Source of the DNA: a virus
Strand: one strand, 5' to 3'
DNA: 64,000 nt
Virus record (IMG/VR): IMGVR_UViG_2716884767_000001
Coordinates: 39,510 to 103,509 of that record
Shown here: one piece after another, positions 32,008 to 39,839 of the stretch
Layout of the letters: the number at the start of each line of letters is the position of its first letter
How positions within the stretch are numbered: the stretch's first letter is position 1
Position numbers and translations under genes: made by a program
The notes under the pieces: generated by a model
Database searches by the model: none
What the model saw: the letters and a program-made list of their open reading frames with translations, nothing else
Told to the model about the DNA's origin: nothing

Positions 32008-32082
32008 GCATTTCTTTTTGTTAAGAAATCCTCACATAAGTATAAATTCTTTGATACATAATAATGAGTATATAAGGAGACG

Positions 32083-32241
32083 ATGCCTATGCACAATCCA
32101 ATATCATTCAATAATTTGAACTCTTGGGTGCCTTTCAATTTATCTAATACAGACCCAATAGATGATTACTTTGAGTGTATTGTTGAATGTAAAGAAGGAG
32201 ACAAATCATGTGCATTAGAATGTAGATCACTTCTAGAATAG
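32083..32241 (+). CDS. small four-cysteine protein (not in ORF track)
   Basis: ...DPIDDYFECIVECKEGDKSCALECRSLLE; AAGGAGA RBS; in-frame ATGs at 32083 and 32089. Confidence 0.7.
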   Translation: MPMHNPISFNNLNSWVPFNLSNTDPIDDYFECIVECKEGDKSCALECRSLLE

Positions 32242-32264
32242 GAGCAGACCAATGAATCCTTACA

Positions 32265-32297
32265 AAAAGGGGGGGGTAAACCACCCCCTCTTTTTTG
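32265..32297 (+). terminator. rho-independent terminator
   Basis: G-run/C-run stem followed by a T run; upstream A run suggests it works in both directions. Confidence 0.8.
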
Positions 32298-32318
32298 CGT
32301 TTTATGGTTAAATAGTAT

Positions 32319-32369
32319 TGGATGCCGAAAGGATCCACATTTAACACTCGCTTACTAAGGAGAACTATG
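32319..32369 (+). promoter_or_regulatory. structured hsp20 leader, ROSE-like RNA thermometer candidate
   Basis: GAAA-tetraloop hairpin at 32319-32337, then UCGCU able to pair with the AGGA SD. Confidence 0.55.
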
Positions 32370-32825: not shown

Positions 32826-33791
32826 ATGGATTATAAAAGTTCTGGAGTTGATATCGAAGCAGGTAATGCTTTCGTAAATTCTATTAAAGATACCGTTAAG
32901 TCCACTCATCGACCAGAAGTCGTGGGTGGACTTGGTGGTTTTAATGGTATGATTAAAATTCCAGAAGGATATAAAAAACCAATCTTAGTATCAGGAGCAG
33001 ATGGTGTAGGTACTAAATTAAAAATAGCTCATATCTGGGATAAGCATTATGAAATGGGTATTGATTTAGTTGCAATGTGTGTTAATGATGTAATTACCTG
33101 TGGGGCAGAACCCTTATATTTTTTGGATTATATTGCGACTGGTAAACTCGATGCAAAGAAATTATCAGAAATTATTACAGGAATTGCCATGGGTTGTACT
33201 ATGTCTGGATGCACATTGTTAGGTGGTGAGACTGCAGAAATGCCTAGTATGTATGATTCATTAAGTTATGATCTTGCAGGATTTTGTACAGGTGTTGTAG
33301 ATGAGGATGATATTATTGATGGATCAAACATAACTAAAGGTGATTTAATTATTGGTATTGAAAGTAGTGGACTTCACAGTAATGGATATAGTTTAATTAA
33401 TAATATGCTTTGGAGACAAAAGATTGCTTATCTTGATATGCCTGAGTTATCTACACCAACACGCATCTATGTATCAGTGGTTAAGGAACTAATCAATCAA
33501 GTTCCAATCTTAGGAATGGCACATATTACAGGTGGTGGTATTATTGAAAATTTACCAAGATGTATTCCTGATGGACTTAAGGCAAATGTAAATTACGACT
33601 CATGGCCTTTACCCGACATATTTAAAAAAATTATGCTTGCAGGTGAGATACTACCAGAGGAAATGAAAAAGGTATTTAATTTAGGAATTGGTTATTGTAT
33701 TGTAATTCCGAAAGATGCTGAGACAGATGCACATGATACCATAGATGCATTTGGATACAAAAGTTGGACAATTGGAGAAGTTGTGCTATAA
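32826..33791 (+). CDS. purM: AIR synthetase
   Basis: YKSSGVDI, DGVGTK, GGETAEMP, GLHSNGYSL, HITGGG. Confidence 0.97.
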   Translation: MDYKSSGVDIEAGNAFVNSIKDTVKSTHRPEVVGGLGGFNGMIKIPEGYKKPILVSGADGVGTKLKIAHIWDKHYEMGIDLVAMCVNDVITCGAEPLYFLDYIATGKLDAKKLSEIITGIAMGCTMSGCTLLGGETAEMPSMYDSLSYDLAGFCTGVVDEDDIIDGSNITKGDLIIGIESSGLHSNGYSLINNMLWRQKIAYLDMPELSTPTRIYVSVVKELINQVPILGMAHITGGGIIENLPRCIPDGLKANVNYDSWPLPDIFKKIMLAGEILPEEMKKVFNLGIGYCIVIPKDAETDAHDTIDAFGYKSWTIGEVVL

Positions 33792-33792
33792 T
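33765..33792 (+). promoter_or_regulatory. sigma70-like promoter
   Basis: TGGACA-N16-TATAAT with TGTG extension. Confidence 0.6.
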
Positions 33793-33798
33793 GTATTT

Positions 33799-33867
33799 GT
33801 CAGAGAAATACTGACTGCGGTGATCCCCTTTGGTAGGTTCAGGATTAGCGGCGATAGGAATCTACCA
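33799..33867 (+). ncRNA. candidate structured small RNA with pseudoknot
   Basis: GTCAG/CTGAC hairpin; 10-bp TGGTAGGTTC/GAATCTACCA stem; loop GGATTA can pair with upstream TGATCC. Confidence 0.6.
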
Positions 33868-33889
33868 CAAAAATATTCGACTCAAACAA

Positions 33890-34156
33890 ATGGAAAAAAA
33901 TATACAGTGTATCATCTTACAAAGTGGTGTTGTTTTAGTATCAGAAATTGAAGAAGCATTTGGTGATATACCTGGTGAACCAGATTGTAGATTACTCAGT
34001 CCGTTTAAGTTAATCAAAACAAAAGAAACATACACTTTAGAACCATGGTTGGATTTCAGTAATCAATCTGTTACAATGATGAGGTCAGGTGATGCCATCA
34101 CTTTTGTTGAACCAAATGGTGAGTTGCGTGACAAGTATATTAAATTGACATCCTAA
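33890..34156 (+). CDS. conserved hypothetical protein upstream of g43
   Basis: GEPDCRLLSPF; TAATG coupling to g43. Confidence 0.7.
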   Translation: MEKNIQCIILQSGVVLVSEIEEAFGDIPGEPDCRLLSPFKLIKTKETYTLEPWLDFSNQSVTMMRSGDAITFVEPNGELRDKYIKLTS

Positions 34157-36657
34157 TGAGGTTTTACACCAACGTCCAAATGGTTGGAGACAATTTCTTA
34201 GTTCGTGGTTATGAGAATGGAAAACATTTTGCCACTCGTGAGAAGTTTTATCCAACTCTTTTTGTTCCTTCGAAAAAGAAAACAAGATTCAAAACTCTTG
34301 AGGGTGATTACGTCGAGTCTGTTGAACCAGGCACTGTAAGAGAGTGTCGTGAGTTCATTAGAAGATATTCTGAAGTTGAGAACTTTAAGGTGTATGGTAA
34401 TGATAGGTACATCTATCAATATATTTCAGAGAAGTATCCAGAAGAAGAAATTAAGTTTGATTCGAGTAAGATCAAGATCACTACACTTGATATTGAGGTG
34501 AAATCAGAGAATGGTTTCCCTGATGTAGAATCTGCTGCGGAAGAAATACTTCTCATATCAATACAGGATTATACAACAAAACAGATACGGACTTGGGGTC
34601 AAGGACCTTTCAATAATAAACAGAAGAATGTAATATACAAGGGATTTAATAGTGAGTATGAATTACTAAATTCATTCATTCACTGGTGGATGATAGAAGA
34701 GAATACACCAGAGGTTATTACTGGTTGGAACAGTGAGTTGTATGATATTCCATATTTGGCACGTAGACTTGAAAGAGTCTTGGGAGAAAAACTTCGTAAA
34801 AGATTATCTCCATGGGGTTTGGTGACTGAAGATGTAATTTATATCGCAGGACGTAAGAATATTACATATGACATTGGTGGTATCACACAATTAGATTATT
34901 TAAATCTCTATAAGAAGTTTACTTACAAGGCACAAGAATCATATCGTTTGGATTATATTGCAAGTGTTGAACTTGGACAGAAGAAACTTGATCACTCAGA
35001 GTTTGATACATTTAAGGATTTCTACACAAAAGGTTGGCAAAAGTTTGTAGAGTATAATATAATCGACGTTGAACTTGTTGACCGCATGGAAGACAAGATG
35101 AAATTGATTGAACTTGCAATCGTTATGGCATATGATGCAAAGGCAAACTATGCTGATGTATTCTCACAGGTTCGTATGTGGGATACAATAATTTATAACT
35201 ATTTAAAGAAGAGAAACATTGTTATTCCTCCAAAAGAGAGATCTGATAAATCCGAAAAGTACGCAGGAGCCTATGTCAAAGAACCGATACCAGGAAAGTA
35301 TGATTGGGTGGTTTCGTTTGACCTTAATAGTCTGTATCCTCATCTCATTATGCAATATAATATTTCCCCTGAGACCCTCAAGGATGAACGACATCCAACA
35401 GCTTCGGTTGATAAAATCCTTCAGGAAGAAGTAAATTTTGAGTTGCACAAAGATAGTGCCGTATGTGCAAATGGTGCGATGTATCGAAAAGATGTGCGTG
35501 GATTTCTTCCAGAGTTGATGGAGAAGATATACAAAGATCGAACTGTTTATAAAAAGAAAATGCTTGCTGCAAAACAAGCATATGAAAAAACTCCTACCAA
35601 AACTTTGGAGAAGGAGATTGCCAGATGTAACAATATACAAATGGCACGTAAGATTCAACTTAACTCTGCCTATGGTGCGATTGGAAATCAATATTTCCGA
35701 TACTATAAACTTGCTAATGCAGAGGCAATCACTCTATCGGGTCAAGTATCGATTCGTTGGATTGAGAATCGAATGAACACTTTTATTAACAAGATATTAA
35801 AAACGGAGGATGTTGATTATGTCATTGCTAGTGATACTGATTCTATCTACCTTAACCTTGGTCCTTTGGTGGAGGTCATATACAAGGGGAGAGAGAAGAC
35901 TTCTGAAAGCATTGTTTCGTTCCTTAATAAGATCTGTGAGATGGAATTTGAAAAGTATATTGAAAGTTCTTATGAAACGTTGGCCAACTATGTAAACGCA
36001 TACGATCAAAAGATGTTCATGAAACGAGAGAACATCGCAGATCGTGGCATATGGACAGCAAAGAAAAGATATATTCTAAACGTGTGGGATAGTGAGGGTG
36101 TGAGATACGATGAACCCAAACTGAAGATGATGGGTATTGAAGCAGTTAAGTCATCAACCCCTGCTCCTTGTCGTACCATGATTAAAGATGGACTCAAGTT
36201 GATGATGAATGGTACAGAGGAAGATGTGATTCATTTTATTGATGAATGTCGTTCAAAGTTTAAGACACTTGATCCAGAAGACATAGCATTTCCAAGAACT
36301 GCATCTGATGTTCGTAAGTATAAAGCATCTTCTACGATCTATGCAAAAGGAACTCCAATACATTGTCGAGGTGCTCTCTTGTTTAATCATTATATTACAA
36401 AGAAAAATTTAACAAATAAATATTCACTTATTGGTAATGGTGAGAAGGTTAAGTTTATTTACTTGAAGAAACCAAACATCATACAGGAGAATGTAATATC
36501 ATTCATTCAAGACTTTCCCCGTGAACTTGGACTTGACAAATACATAGATTATGAACTACAATTTGAGAAGAGTTTCGTCGAACCACTTAAAGCAATTCTT
36601 GATGCGATTGGGTGGAACGTTGAAAAAACTGTAAACCTTGAATTATTTTTTACATAA
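34156..36657 (+). CDS. g43: family B DNA polymerase gp43
   Basis: DIEV exonuclease motif, SFDLNSLYP, KIQLNSAYG, SDTDS. Confidence 0.98.
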   Translation: MRFYTNVQMVGDNFLVRGYENGKHFATREKFYPTLFVPSKKKTRFKTLEGDYVESVEPGTVRECREFIRRYSEVENFKVYGNDRYIYQYISEKYPEEEIKFDSSKIKITTLDIEVKSENGFPDVESAAEEILLISIQDYTTKQIRTWGQGPFNNKQKNVIYKGFNSEYELLNSFIHWWMIEENTPEVITGWNSELYDIPYLARRLERVLGEKLRKRLSPWGLVTEDVIYIAGRKNITYDIGGITQLDYLNLYKKFTYKAQESYRLDYIASVELGQKKLDHSEFDTFKDFYTKGWQKFVEYNIIDVELVDRMEDKMKLIELAIVMAYDAKANYADVFSQVRMWDTIIYNYLKKRNIVIPPKERSDKSEKYAGAYVKEPIPGKYDWVVSFDLNSLYPHLIMQYNISPETLKDERHPTASVDKILQEEVNFELHKDSAVCANGAMYRKDVRGFLPELMEKIYKDRTVYKKKMLAAKQAYEKTPTKTLEKEIARCNNIQMARKIQLNSAYGAIGNQYFRYYKLANAEAITLSGQVSIRWIENRMNTFINKILKTEDVDYVIASDTDSIYLNLGPLVEVIYKGREKTSESIVSFLNKICEMEFEKYIESSYETLANYVNAYDQKMFMKRENIADRGIWTAKKRYILNVWDSEGVRYDEPKLKMMGIEAVKSSTPAPCRTMIKDGLKLMMNGTEEDVIHFIDECRSKFKTLDPEDIAFPRTASDVRKYKASSTIYAKGTPIHCRGALLFNHYITKKNLTNKYSLIGNGEKVKFIYLKKPNIIQENVISFIQDFPRELGLDKYIDYELQFEKSFVEPLKAILDAIGWNVEKTVNLELFFT

Positions 36658-36842
36658 TGGATTTGCCTATCAACAAAAAAGAATTTGATTATATTGTTAC
36701 CGCATTGTGGAAATGTAGAAAAACTGAAGATGAATGTGGAGATTTATATGAAAAAATGAAATTGATTCAAGACGTTATGAATGAGTATCCCGACGGACCT
36801 TATAAAAAAATACTTCGTGAACAATATGGAATGGTAGCTTAA
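36657..36842 (+). CDS. hypothetical protein
   Basis: TAATG-coupled on both sides. Confidence 0.65.
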   Translation: MDLPINKKEFDYIVTALWKCRKTEDECGDLYEKMKLIQDVMNEYPDGPYKKILREQYGMVA

Positions 36843-37849
36843 TGGATTTTTTAAAAGAAATAGTAAAAGAGATTGGTGATGAGTACACCCAAATCGCAGC
36901 AGACATAGATGAAACAGAAAGATTCATTGATACAGGAAGTTATATCTTCAATGCGCTTGTTAGTGGTTCCGTTTATGGTGGCGTTTCTACTAATAAGATT
37001 ACTGCCATCGCTGGTGAGACCTCTACTGGAAAGACTTATTTTTCCCTTGCTATTGTCAAGAACTTTCTGGACACTAACCCTGATGGGTATTGCCTCTATT
37101 TTGATACTGAAGCAGCAATCACCAAGGGATTACTTGCATCTCGTGGAATTGATCAAAACAGACTTGTTGTTGTCAATGTCGTTACCATAGAAGAGTTTCG
37201 AAGTAAGGCACTTCGTGCAGTAGATATATACTTGAAGACAGAAGAAGAGAATCGCAAACCTTGCATGTTTGTATTAGATTCTTTAGGTATGCTTTCCACA
37301 GAGAAAGAAATCACTGATGCACTTAATGATAAACAAGTCAGAGATATGACCAAATCTCAACTTGTTAAAGGTGCATTTCGTATGCTTACCTTAAAACTTG
37401 GTCAAGCAAATATTCCACTCATAGTTACAAATCACACTTACGATGTTATCGGATCTTACATCCCTACTAAAGAAATGGGAGGCGGCAGTGGCCTCAAGTA
37501 TGCCGCGTCTACAATCATTTATCTCAGCAAAAAAAAGGAAAAGGATAAGACAGAAGTTGTTGGAAACATTATTAAAGCTAAGACGGCTAAAAGTAGACTC
37601 AGCAAAGAAAACCAACAAGTTGAAATAAGACTCTACTATGATGAAAGAGGACTTGATCGTTATTATGGTCTTCTTGAATTAGGAGAACTTGGTGGTCTTT
37701 GGAAGAATACTGCTGGAAGATATGAGGTTGATGGTAAAAAAATATATGCTAAAAATATATACGCAGAACCTGAGAAATATTTCACAGACGATATAATGAA
37801 TAAACTAGACGAAATATCAAAGAAGAATTTTTCTTATGGAACGAATTGA
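36842..37849 (+). CDS. uvsX: RecA-like recombinase UvsX
   Basis: AGETSTGKT, YFDTE, DSLGML, MGGGSGLKYAAS. Confidence 0.96.
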   Translation: MDFLKEIVKEIGDEYTQIAADIDETERFIDTGSYIFNALVSGSVYGGVSTNKITAIAGETSTGKTYFSLAIVKNFLDTNPDGYCLYFDTEAAITKGLLASRGIDQNRLVVVNVVTIEEFRSKALRAVDIYLKTEEENRKPCMFVLDSLGMLSTEKEITDALNDKQVRDMTKSQLVKGAFRMLTLKLGQANIPLIVTNHTYDVIGSYIPTKEMGGGSGLKYAASTIIYLSKKKEKDKTEVVGNIIKAKTAKSRLSKENQQVEIRLYYDERGLDRYYGLLELGELGGLWKNTAGRYEVDGKKIYAKNIYAEPEKYFTDDIMNKLDEISKKNFSYGTN

Positions 37850-39436: not shown

Positions 39437-39839
39437 AAAAGTTGACTTTACTAAGTATGCTGATTTCGTGGATGGTGTCACATCCCATCCCAGTAAAGAT
39501 TATCAATGCTTTATTGAGAGTGTTAGTTCCCTTAATGGAAAGGGTGCCAATATTGAACGTCTTCTTACTGCTGCCGTTGGCATTTCTGCTGAAGGTGGTG
39601 AGTTTATGGAGATTGTCAAGAAGATGGTTTTCCAAGGTAAACCTTGGGATGAGCATAATCGAAAGCATCTTATTATTGAGTTGGGTGACGTTATGTGGTA
39701 TGTGATGCAAGCATGCATGGCATTAGATGTATCACTAGATGAAGTTGTAGAAGGAAACGTAGATAAATTAAAGAAGAGATATCCTGGTGGGGAGTTTAAC
39801 GTGTACCAATCAGAAAATCGTAAGGAGGGAGACCTATGA
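39429..39839 (+). CDS. mazG: MazG-like NTP pyrophosphohydrolase
   Basis: AEGGEFMEIVKK, ELGDVMWY, NVDKLKKRYP. Confidence 0.93.
   Translation: MTKKVDFTKYADFVDGVTSHPSKDYQCFIESVSSLNGKGANIERLLTAAVGISAEGGEFMEIVKKMVFQGKPWDEHNRKHLIIELGDVMWYVMQACMALDVSLDEVVEGNVDKLKKRYPGGEFNVYQSENRKEGDL

Follow-up and report, generated by a model that had tools for sequence, protein, structure and literature searches.

An undescribed pseudoknot RNA with its own promoter in ocean cyanophages: a candidate small RNA gene

We analyzed a short element lying between purM and the DNA polymerase gene g43 of a T4-like cyanophage, in a window of 64,000 nucleotides (nt) taken from the IMG/VR record IMGVR_UViG_2716884767_000001 (positions 39,510 to 103,509 of that record; coordinates below are those of the window, and its features lie on the + strand). 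The element comprises a sigma-70-type promoter followed by a 5' hairpin (P1) and an H-type pseudoknot, and the RNA formed by P1 and the pseudoknot is a previously undescribed family. It is carried, usually once per genome, by well over a hundred viruses of ocean cyanobacteria. Because it has its own promoter, is usually present in one copy, keeps unpaired bases conserved, moves between genomic contexts and is occasionally followed by a second promoter, the element is best read as an RNA gene. We give a probability of about one half to the reading in which the folded RNA is itself the product, a stand-alone small RNA acting in trans on a conserved factor.

The promoter (33765-33792) is close to the sigma-70 consensus, with the -35 hexamer TGGACA (33765-33770), a 16-nt spacer and the extended -10 TGcTATAAT (33784-33792), which overlaps the stop codon of purM (33789-33791). 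It matches at 11 of 12 positions and was the top promoter-like site within 33000-37000. Among homologues, a -35-like hexamer was present in 84 of 106 copies and a -10 with at most one mismatch in 101 of 106. The distance between -10 and P1 was exactly 6 nt in 100 of 104 homologues, and this register also holds in the clade whose promoter (TATGAT) sits inside the end of the upstream open reading frame (ORF). Such a fixed register indicates that the RNA should start flush with P1, the predicted start in the window being G33799, the first base of P1; from G33799 to the end of the second pseudoknot stem (S2) there are 69 nt.

In the window, P1 (33799-33815) is a hairpin of five base pairs (bp), GUCAG/CUGAC (33799-33803 with 33811-33815), with the loop AGAAAUA, and in the homologues it shows 32 distinct stems and highly variable loops, often GNRA tetraloops. 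A UG linker (33816-33817), unchanged throughout the 110 copies although the search pattern left both positions free, leads from P1 to the pseudoknot, which spans 33818-33867. The first stem, S1, has as its core UGAUCC (33821-33826) paired with GGAUUA (33842-33847). Comparison of the copies added two more pairs, C33818-G33850 and G33819-C33849, across a conserved G·G mismatch, so that by pair counts the 5' strand runs from 33818 to 33826 (CG, mismatched G33820, UGAUCC) and the 3' strand from 33842 to 33850 (GGAUUA, mismatched G33848, CG). G33819-C33849 becomes U-A in 21 copies (CUGCGG...AGCGGC versus CUGCUG...AGAGGC), and G33820 is invariant at a position left free by the first scan pattern. 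Loop L1, CCUU (33827-33830), follows the form (C/U)CUU, in which CUU is invariant and the first base is rarely U; the first scan pattern left this loop free as well. S2 is a 10-bp stem in the window (5' strand UGGUAGGUUC, 33831-33840; 3' strand GAAUCUACCA, 33858-33867) and occurs in 34 helix variants; once further variants are included, its fourth pair is G-C, G-U, A-U or U-A, which leaves only UUC/GAA fixed. The junction between S2 and S1 is A33841, constant in every copy but fixed by every scan pattern, so that its constancy is no independent evidence. Loop L3, GCGAUAG (33851-33857), is a 7-nt sequence of the form GC(G/U/A)A(U/C/A)AG, with one variant carrying an extra A. The A/U-rich spacer before the next start codon (33868-33889) is unstructured and unconserved. 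The original prediction, made from the letters of the window, had read here a promoter, a hairpin, a 10-bp stem, a pseudoknot and two GCGG motifs (33817-33820 and 33848-33851), and all of these were found where it had placed them. In addition, the C-U-U of L1 runs parallel to the G-A-A of the invariant S2 pairs, which leads us to propose C+·G-C and U·A-U triples like those of other triple-helix pseudoknots; the CUU may lie in the major groove of S2, alongside its three invariant pairs (U-A/U-A/C-G).

The folding energy of the single sequence was unremarkable (z = -0.02) and thus uninformative, and the case for the structure rests on relatives. Among 110 distinct copies, drawn from isolated cyanophages and from IMG/VR contigs, standard pairs occupied 99.7% of pair cells (99.9% in S1 and 99.5% in S2). 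Two-sided changes were found in 9 of the 17 pairs, including 4 of the 8 in S1; the S2 count partly reflects a one-pair difference in length between long and short forms, while the helix variants themselves are real. None of 500 shuffles reached the observed covariation values, and pairing fell to 18-50% when the 3' partners were slid by 1-3 columns. Individual S1 positions varied among G-U, A-U, G-C and U-A, among A-U, C-G, U-A and U-G, or among U-A, C-G and U-G, and the frequent G-U pairs, which would be A-C mismatches on the opposite strand, indicate that the structure belongs to an RNA of the + strand. Covariation is therefore strong for both pseudoknot stems and, together with the fold and the promoter register, it supports the promoter-driven pseudoknotted RNA of about 70 nt that had been proposed. 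The core (33814-33870) was 83-93% identical across genera, compared with 66-77% for the flanking coding DNA, and about 30 bases of the RNA are invariant. Such conservation is typical of ribozymes, aptamers and RNAs that bind a specific protein.

A 116-nt query matched the core in P-SSM2/P-SSM5, S-SKS1, about 50 ACG-2014f isolates, S-B43, S-B05, RB11-B, S-SCSM2R, S-H68 and SynMITS9220M01, mostly in unannotated intergenic DNA, and scans of IMG/VR with three patterns each recovered at least 120 contigs with the element. The source genome has a single copy, which scored 72.6 bits (E value 4.6e-18) against R1, a family model built in this analysis with the window sequence among its training sequences. 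This copy has the full R1 order: a -10 located 6 nt before P1, then UG, S1, (C/U)CUU, S2, A, S1', L3 and S2'; each of its pairs is a standard one. On at least one viral contig (L060) two copies were found about 1.2 kb apart, one before a tRNA-Arg and the other before a tRNA-Pro; the copies linked to tRNA-Pro form a subtype with GCGACAG in L3. A scan of 185,579 prokaryote species (one genome each) with a strict core pattern, which would miss diverged relatives, gave a single match, on an 832-bp contig (L126; JAURJB010000094.1) filed under an Acidimicrobiales metagenome-assembled genome. This contig carries a sigma-70 promoter, P1, the pseudoknot and a tRNA-Pro, and it is most likely misbinned cyanophage DNA. 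By this search, the element is virus-only in its distribution.

The genomic contexts of the element were diverse. Of 121 informative copies, at least 70 had a tRNA directly after the element (tRNA-Arg(UCU) in 61 and tRNA-Pro(UGG) in 9), starting 7-11 nt past GGAA, that is, 3-4 nt past S2; this short gap probably reflects array compaction, because the spacers between tRNAs and manA RNAs in those arrays are equally tight. The copies without a tRNA precede at least 10 unrelated protein families, including DUF6561 (15 copies, the window among them) and purM, and the genes upstream of the element fall into at least 12 families. The suggestion that the element is a regulator dedicated to the g43 operon was ruled out by these contexts. 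An obligatory leader of tRNA-Arg was also ruled out, since the dissociation runs both ways. The source genome keeps the element with zero tRNAs (ARAGORN and Rfam RF00005, in the window and in the complete record), and six cyanophage genera (ACG-2014i, S-CAM9, S-SSM2, ACG-2014b, Syn33 and S-RIM8) have the tRNA-Arg(UCU) ortholog directly after an ORF without the pseudoknot, the best R1 score at that locus being only 5.8 bits. The idea that S2 switches with the 5' end of the tRNA was discarded, as variants of S2 (CCUGG/CCAGG, for example) have no counterpart in the neighbouring tRNA. A conserved protein neighbour as candidate partner was rejected as well, since upstream and downstream ORFs both split into many unrelated clusters. 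In twelve S-SKS1-like copies a TTGACT-17-TATAAT promoter for the next gene follows 5-35 nt beyond the element, which, judged by this arrangement, is a stand-alone unit in that clade.

The module of promoter plus RNA is portable. In this regard, promoter/stem-loop cassettes of T4-type phages have been proposed as gene shufflers. P-SSM2-like copies (e.g. contigs L108, L110, L034 and L075) have a ...CCCTTTTTTT tail directly before TGnTATAAT, which looks like the end of a terminator U-tract abutting the extended -10, and such a terminator-like tail could explain how the module moves. The GC-rich island seen at this place was also found, but it is only a modest one, with a G+C content of 0.43-0.46 in the element versus 0.29-0.39 in its flanks.

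Known RNA families gave no match to the element. A cmscan search of 33700-33960 against Rfam 15 with an E limit of 10 gave only three chance matches to snoRNA and miRNA models (E 0.5-9), and the element matched neither abiF (RF03085), wcaG, PhotoRC-II nor manA, so that the identities suggested for it by the original prediction (abiF, wcaG or PhotoRC-II) were not borne out. At the Rfam gathering thresholds, manA alone was matched in the whole window, and 12 related loci gave tRNA, manA and wcaG only, none of them on the element. Identity as a tRNA or transfer-messenger RNA was rejected (no ARAGORN or RF00005 match), as was a self-cleaving ribozyme of the hepatitis delta virus-like, pistol or hatchet type, whose defining helices are missing and for which there was no Rfam match. 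No description of the element was found in the literature searched. The published manA alignment contains the pseudoknot, and the 2010 candidate-RNA supplement (Weinberg) the 3' part of the element, solely as a flank; passages of the supplement place it upstream of a tRNA that is followed by manA, and the Ocean-VI motif has a different sequence. New here are the extended S1, the promoter register, the clade with a second promoter, the two-way dissociation from tRNAs, the virus-only distribution and the triple-helix proposal.

If the folded RNA is the product, the host sigma-70 RNA polymerase would start at G33799, and the transcript would fold into a 5'-terminal P1 stacked on the H-type pseudoknot, with an S1 of 6+2 bp and an S2 of 8-10 bp. 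The CUU of L1 may then form triples with S2, giving a triple-helix pseudoknot with the size and topology of small riboswitch aptamers, and the flush 5' hairpin would keep the RNA stable. Where a tRNA begins 3-4 nt past S2, ribonuclease (RNase) P cleavage, as expected from established tRNA maturation, would free an RNA of about 70-90 nt whose length is set by P1. In the window, the DUF6561-g43 transcript would begin with the element, which may be removed by cleavage within the A/U-rich spacer. During early infection, the RNA would bind a conserved factor of the host or the phage, which could be a protein or a small ligand. A more specific version, which we advance as speculative, is that many of the ocean cyanomyoviruses, a large share of them, make a virus-only triple-helix pseudoknot early on. 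As a free aptamer, it would capture one particular host factor, for instance a ribonuclease, a defence nuclease, RNA polymerase or a signalling metabolite. If true, this would be an RNA-based tool for host take-over or anti-defence in the phototroph-virus system that is the most abundant on Earth. Marine Synechococcus and Prochlorococcus lose a sizeable fraction of their cells to T4-like cyanophages, whose non-coding RNAs have hardly been explored. The small size of the element makes it accessible to direct structural and biochemical work, with P-SSM2, S-SKS1, ACG-2014f and S-B43 as cultured carriers.

Two small RNAs linked to tRNAs offer partial parallels for an RNA gene of this kind. The stable RNAs species 1 and 2 of T4 (rnaC and rnaD) are small structured non-tRNA RNAs encoded in the tRNA gene cluster of the phage; they too belong to a T4-type phage, are co-transcribed with tRNAs, are freed by tRNA processing and have a similarly obscure function. 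The cyanophage RNA differs from them in its hairpin plus pseudoknot, in having its own promoter, in occurring also far from tRNAs and in persisting in a tRNA-free genome. The 3' external transcribed spacer (3'ETS) of E. coli leuZ is a small RNA from a tRNA operon spacer that acts as a base-pairing sponge. It resembles the proposed cyanophage RNA as a functional RNA that arises as a by-product of the processing of a tRNA precursor by RNase P or RNase E, whereas the cyanophage RNA has a compact pseudoknot fold and its conserved single-stranded stretches are only 4-7 nt long.

Several points weigh against reading the element as an RNA gene. The RNA's start site, 3' end and stability are each deduced from sequence, and the triple helix is proposed solely from invariance, which lies beyond the reach of covariation. 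No neighbouring gene is consistent enough to suggest a binding partner. Furthermore, about 35 copies, including that of the window, have a start codon 15-25 nt past S2 with no promoter between, an arrangement that fits a cis-acting 5' untranslated region equally well, and a leader role would account for the contig in which two copies each precede a tRNA just as readily as a gene would.

These last two points bear directly on the possible but, in our view, less persuasive explanation that the element is a cis-acting 5' leader domain acting on whatever follows it. Such a leader could protect the transcript from 5'-end-dependent decay (RNase E or RNase J), adjust how ribosomes load on the A/U-rich spacer or modify the transcribing RNA polymerase. 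The last mode would be that of the put RNAs of phage HK022, which consist of two hairpins and must stay tethered to the polymerase; like them, the element is a promoter-proximal, phage-encoded structured RNA with a conserved fold that would act without translation. The predicted 5' end of the transcription unit always falls at the element, P1 being flush with the start site, and in the window its promoter is the sole strong one ahead of DUF6561-g43. A leader role is credible for copies of the window type, with a start codon 15-25 nt past S2, but other points count against it. Before tRNAs, RNase P would cut the element off from both the polymerase and the tRNA, and in most copies it would sever a put-like tether; in addition, tRNAs need neither translation nor mRNA stabilisation. 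A stabiliser would need P1 alone and not about 30 invariant bases, and one copy per genome would be odd for a general stabiliser or antiterminator. The cargoes are also without a common function, and in the S-SKS1 clade the next gene is supplied with its own promoter.

The conserved unpaired bases, together with the size, the H-type topology, the conserved loops and the possible triples, also bring to mind a riboswitch-like sensor, that is, a triple-helix pseudoknot aptamer for a metabolite or ion that would alter the processing or expression of the attached RNA. The resemblance is to SAM-II/SAM-V, preQ1-II and guanidine-III (RF00521, RF01826, RF01054 and RF01763), aptamers of about 50 nt with the same order of stems and loops, conserved loops and a pyrimidine loop positioned for possible major-groove triples. 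We consider this explanation unlikely. The cyanophage RNA matched none of the models for pseudoknot riboswitches (SAM-II/V, preQ1-I/II/III, guanidine-III, fluoride and ZTP) at an E limit of 10, and it lacks an expression platform, with neither a conserved terminator nor sequestration of a start site and just 3-4 nt from S2 to the tRNA. Moreover, the downstream cargo is unrelated, includes tRNAs and has no common pathway.

The original prediction had suggested, as one possibility, an anti-defence decoy, an orphan mimic of a ToxI-like or abiF-like antitoxin that would neutralise an abortive-infection RNase of the host. This would be a special case of a trans-acting RNA, and we regard it as very improbable. 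ToxI is a pseudoknot RNA antitoxin that binds its toxin directly. AbiF-type RNA antitoxins also exist and bind their toxin directly (PMC12373285), and both the ToxI-type repeats and the abiF motif (RF03085; PMC12373285) are, like the cyanophage RNA, short and structured, partly pseudoknotted RNAs; they bind protein, and phages can carry mimics of them. The early promoter and the virus-only distribution of the element would suit such a role. However, no abiF or other Rfam match was obtained, and the region 33400-34300 holds no tandem repeat, unlike ToxI-type systems with their arrays of repeats of about 34-36 nt beside an endoribonuclease toxin gene. The source genome has a single copy without a toxin gene nearby; as had been noted, neither a HEPN nor an Abi gene lies next to the element, whose neighbours are purM, the DUF6561 ORF, g43, uvsX and gp41, and the homologues examined had no Abi_2/AbiF (HEPN) gene among their downstream families. 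The strict core pattern found no relative in the 185,579 cellular genomes (diverged relatives would be missed), which implies that no host antitoxin with the same core is available for mimicry. The sole pointer found in favour of the decoy was a weakly antitoxin-like ORF that follows the pseudoknot in three contigs. This ORF of 56-57 amino acids (aa) (L040 105-275, L063 12298-12468 and L082 755-922, all on the - strand) gave a weak Phd/YefM antitoxin match (E 8.6e-5, under the Pfam cut-off), has no toxin partner and is followed by tRNA-Ile(UAU); it may be an orphan antitoxin.

Lastly, a mimic of the 16S rRNA 3' end that titrates a factor handling the anti-Shine-Dalgarno tail is barely credible. 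The 5' half, UGCGGUGAUC(C)CCUU or, in some copies, GACCUCCUU, resembles UGCGGCUGGAUCACCUCCUU, with about 16 matching bases and 4 gaps against the conserved 16S 3' end, the invariant UGCGGU and CCUU included, but this likeness is probably coincidental. In 96 of 110 copies the key U of CCUCC is replaced by C, G-C/G-U pairing in S1 accounts for the variation there, and the bases concerned are paired and not single-stranded.

The RNA shares its T4-like cyanophages, and often the same RNA-rich neighbourhood, with manA (RF01745) and wcaG (RF01761), whose function is likewise obscure (PMC2864571); their sequence and fold are unrelated to those of the cyanophage RNA described here. In ACG-2014f and S-B43 (L003 3055-3413 and L004 3057-3415), manA comes directly after the tRNA-Arg that is preceded by the pseudoknot, in the order pseudoknot, tRNA-Arg, manA, tRNA, with spacers of 0-2 nt between neighbours. 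There manA would be cut free by tRNA processing, an odd fate for RNAs classed as cis-regulatory. Additionally, wcaG RNAs (L002 3643-3740 and L024 3322-3415) follow the pseudoknot on its own strand, 0.6-0.8 kb further downstream, and structured RNAs of these phages thus cluster together.

The source record is a 210-kb T4-like cyanomyovirus with a CheckV completeness of 100% and the usual set of replication genes. The order of genes at the locus is a Dam-type methylase, an ORF of the PNP_UDP_1 phosphorylase family, gp62, RegA, Hsp20, purM, the element, the DUF6561 ORF and g43, after which come a 61-aa ORF, UvsX and the gp41 helicase. Directly upstream of the element, purM (AIR synthase; 32826-33791) carries the Pfam domains AIRS and AIRS_C. 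Downstream, and outside the RNA, the DUF6561 ORF (33890-34156; 88 aa; PF20198, E 1.4e-22) is followed by g43 (34156-36657), a family B DNA polymerase with the Pfam DNA_pol_B and exonuclease domains. The stop codon of the former overlaps the start codon of the latter (ATGA) and the pair is conserved across cyanomyoviruses; the DUF6561 product may be an accessory of the polymerase or a partner coupled to it through translation. A full-length manA RNA (RF01745, 189 bits) was found at 62997-63184 (+), 29 kb from the element. The gap of 314 nt between regA and hsp20 (32008-32321) has no long ORF, and no Rfam family was detected inside it; in P-SSM2, the equivalent gap contains a manA RNA.

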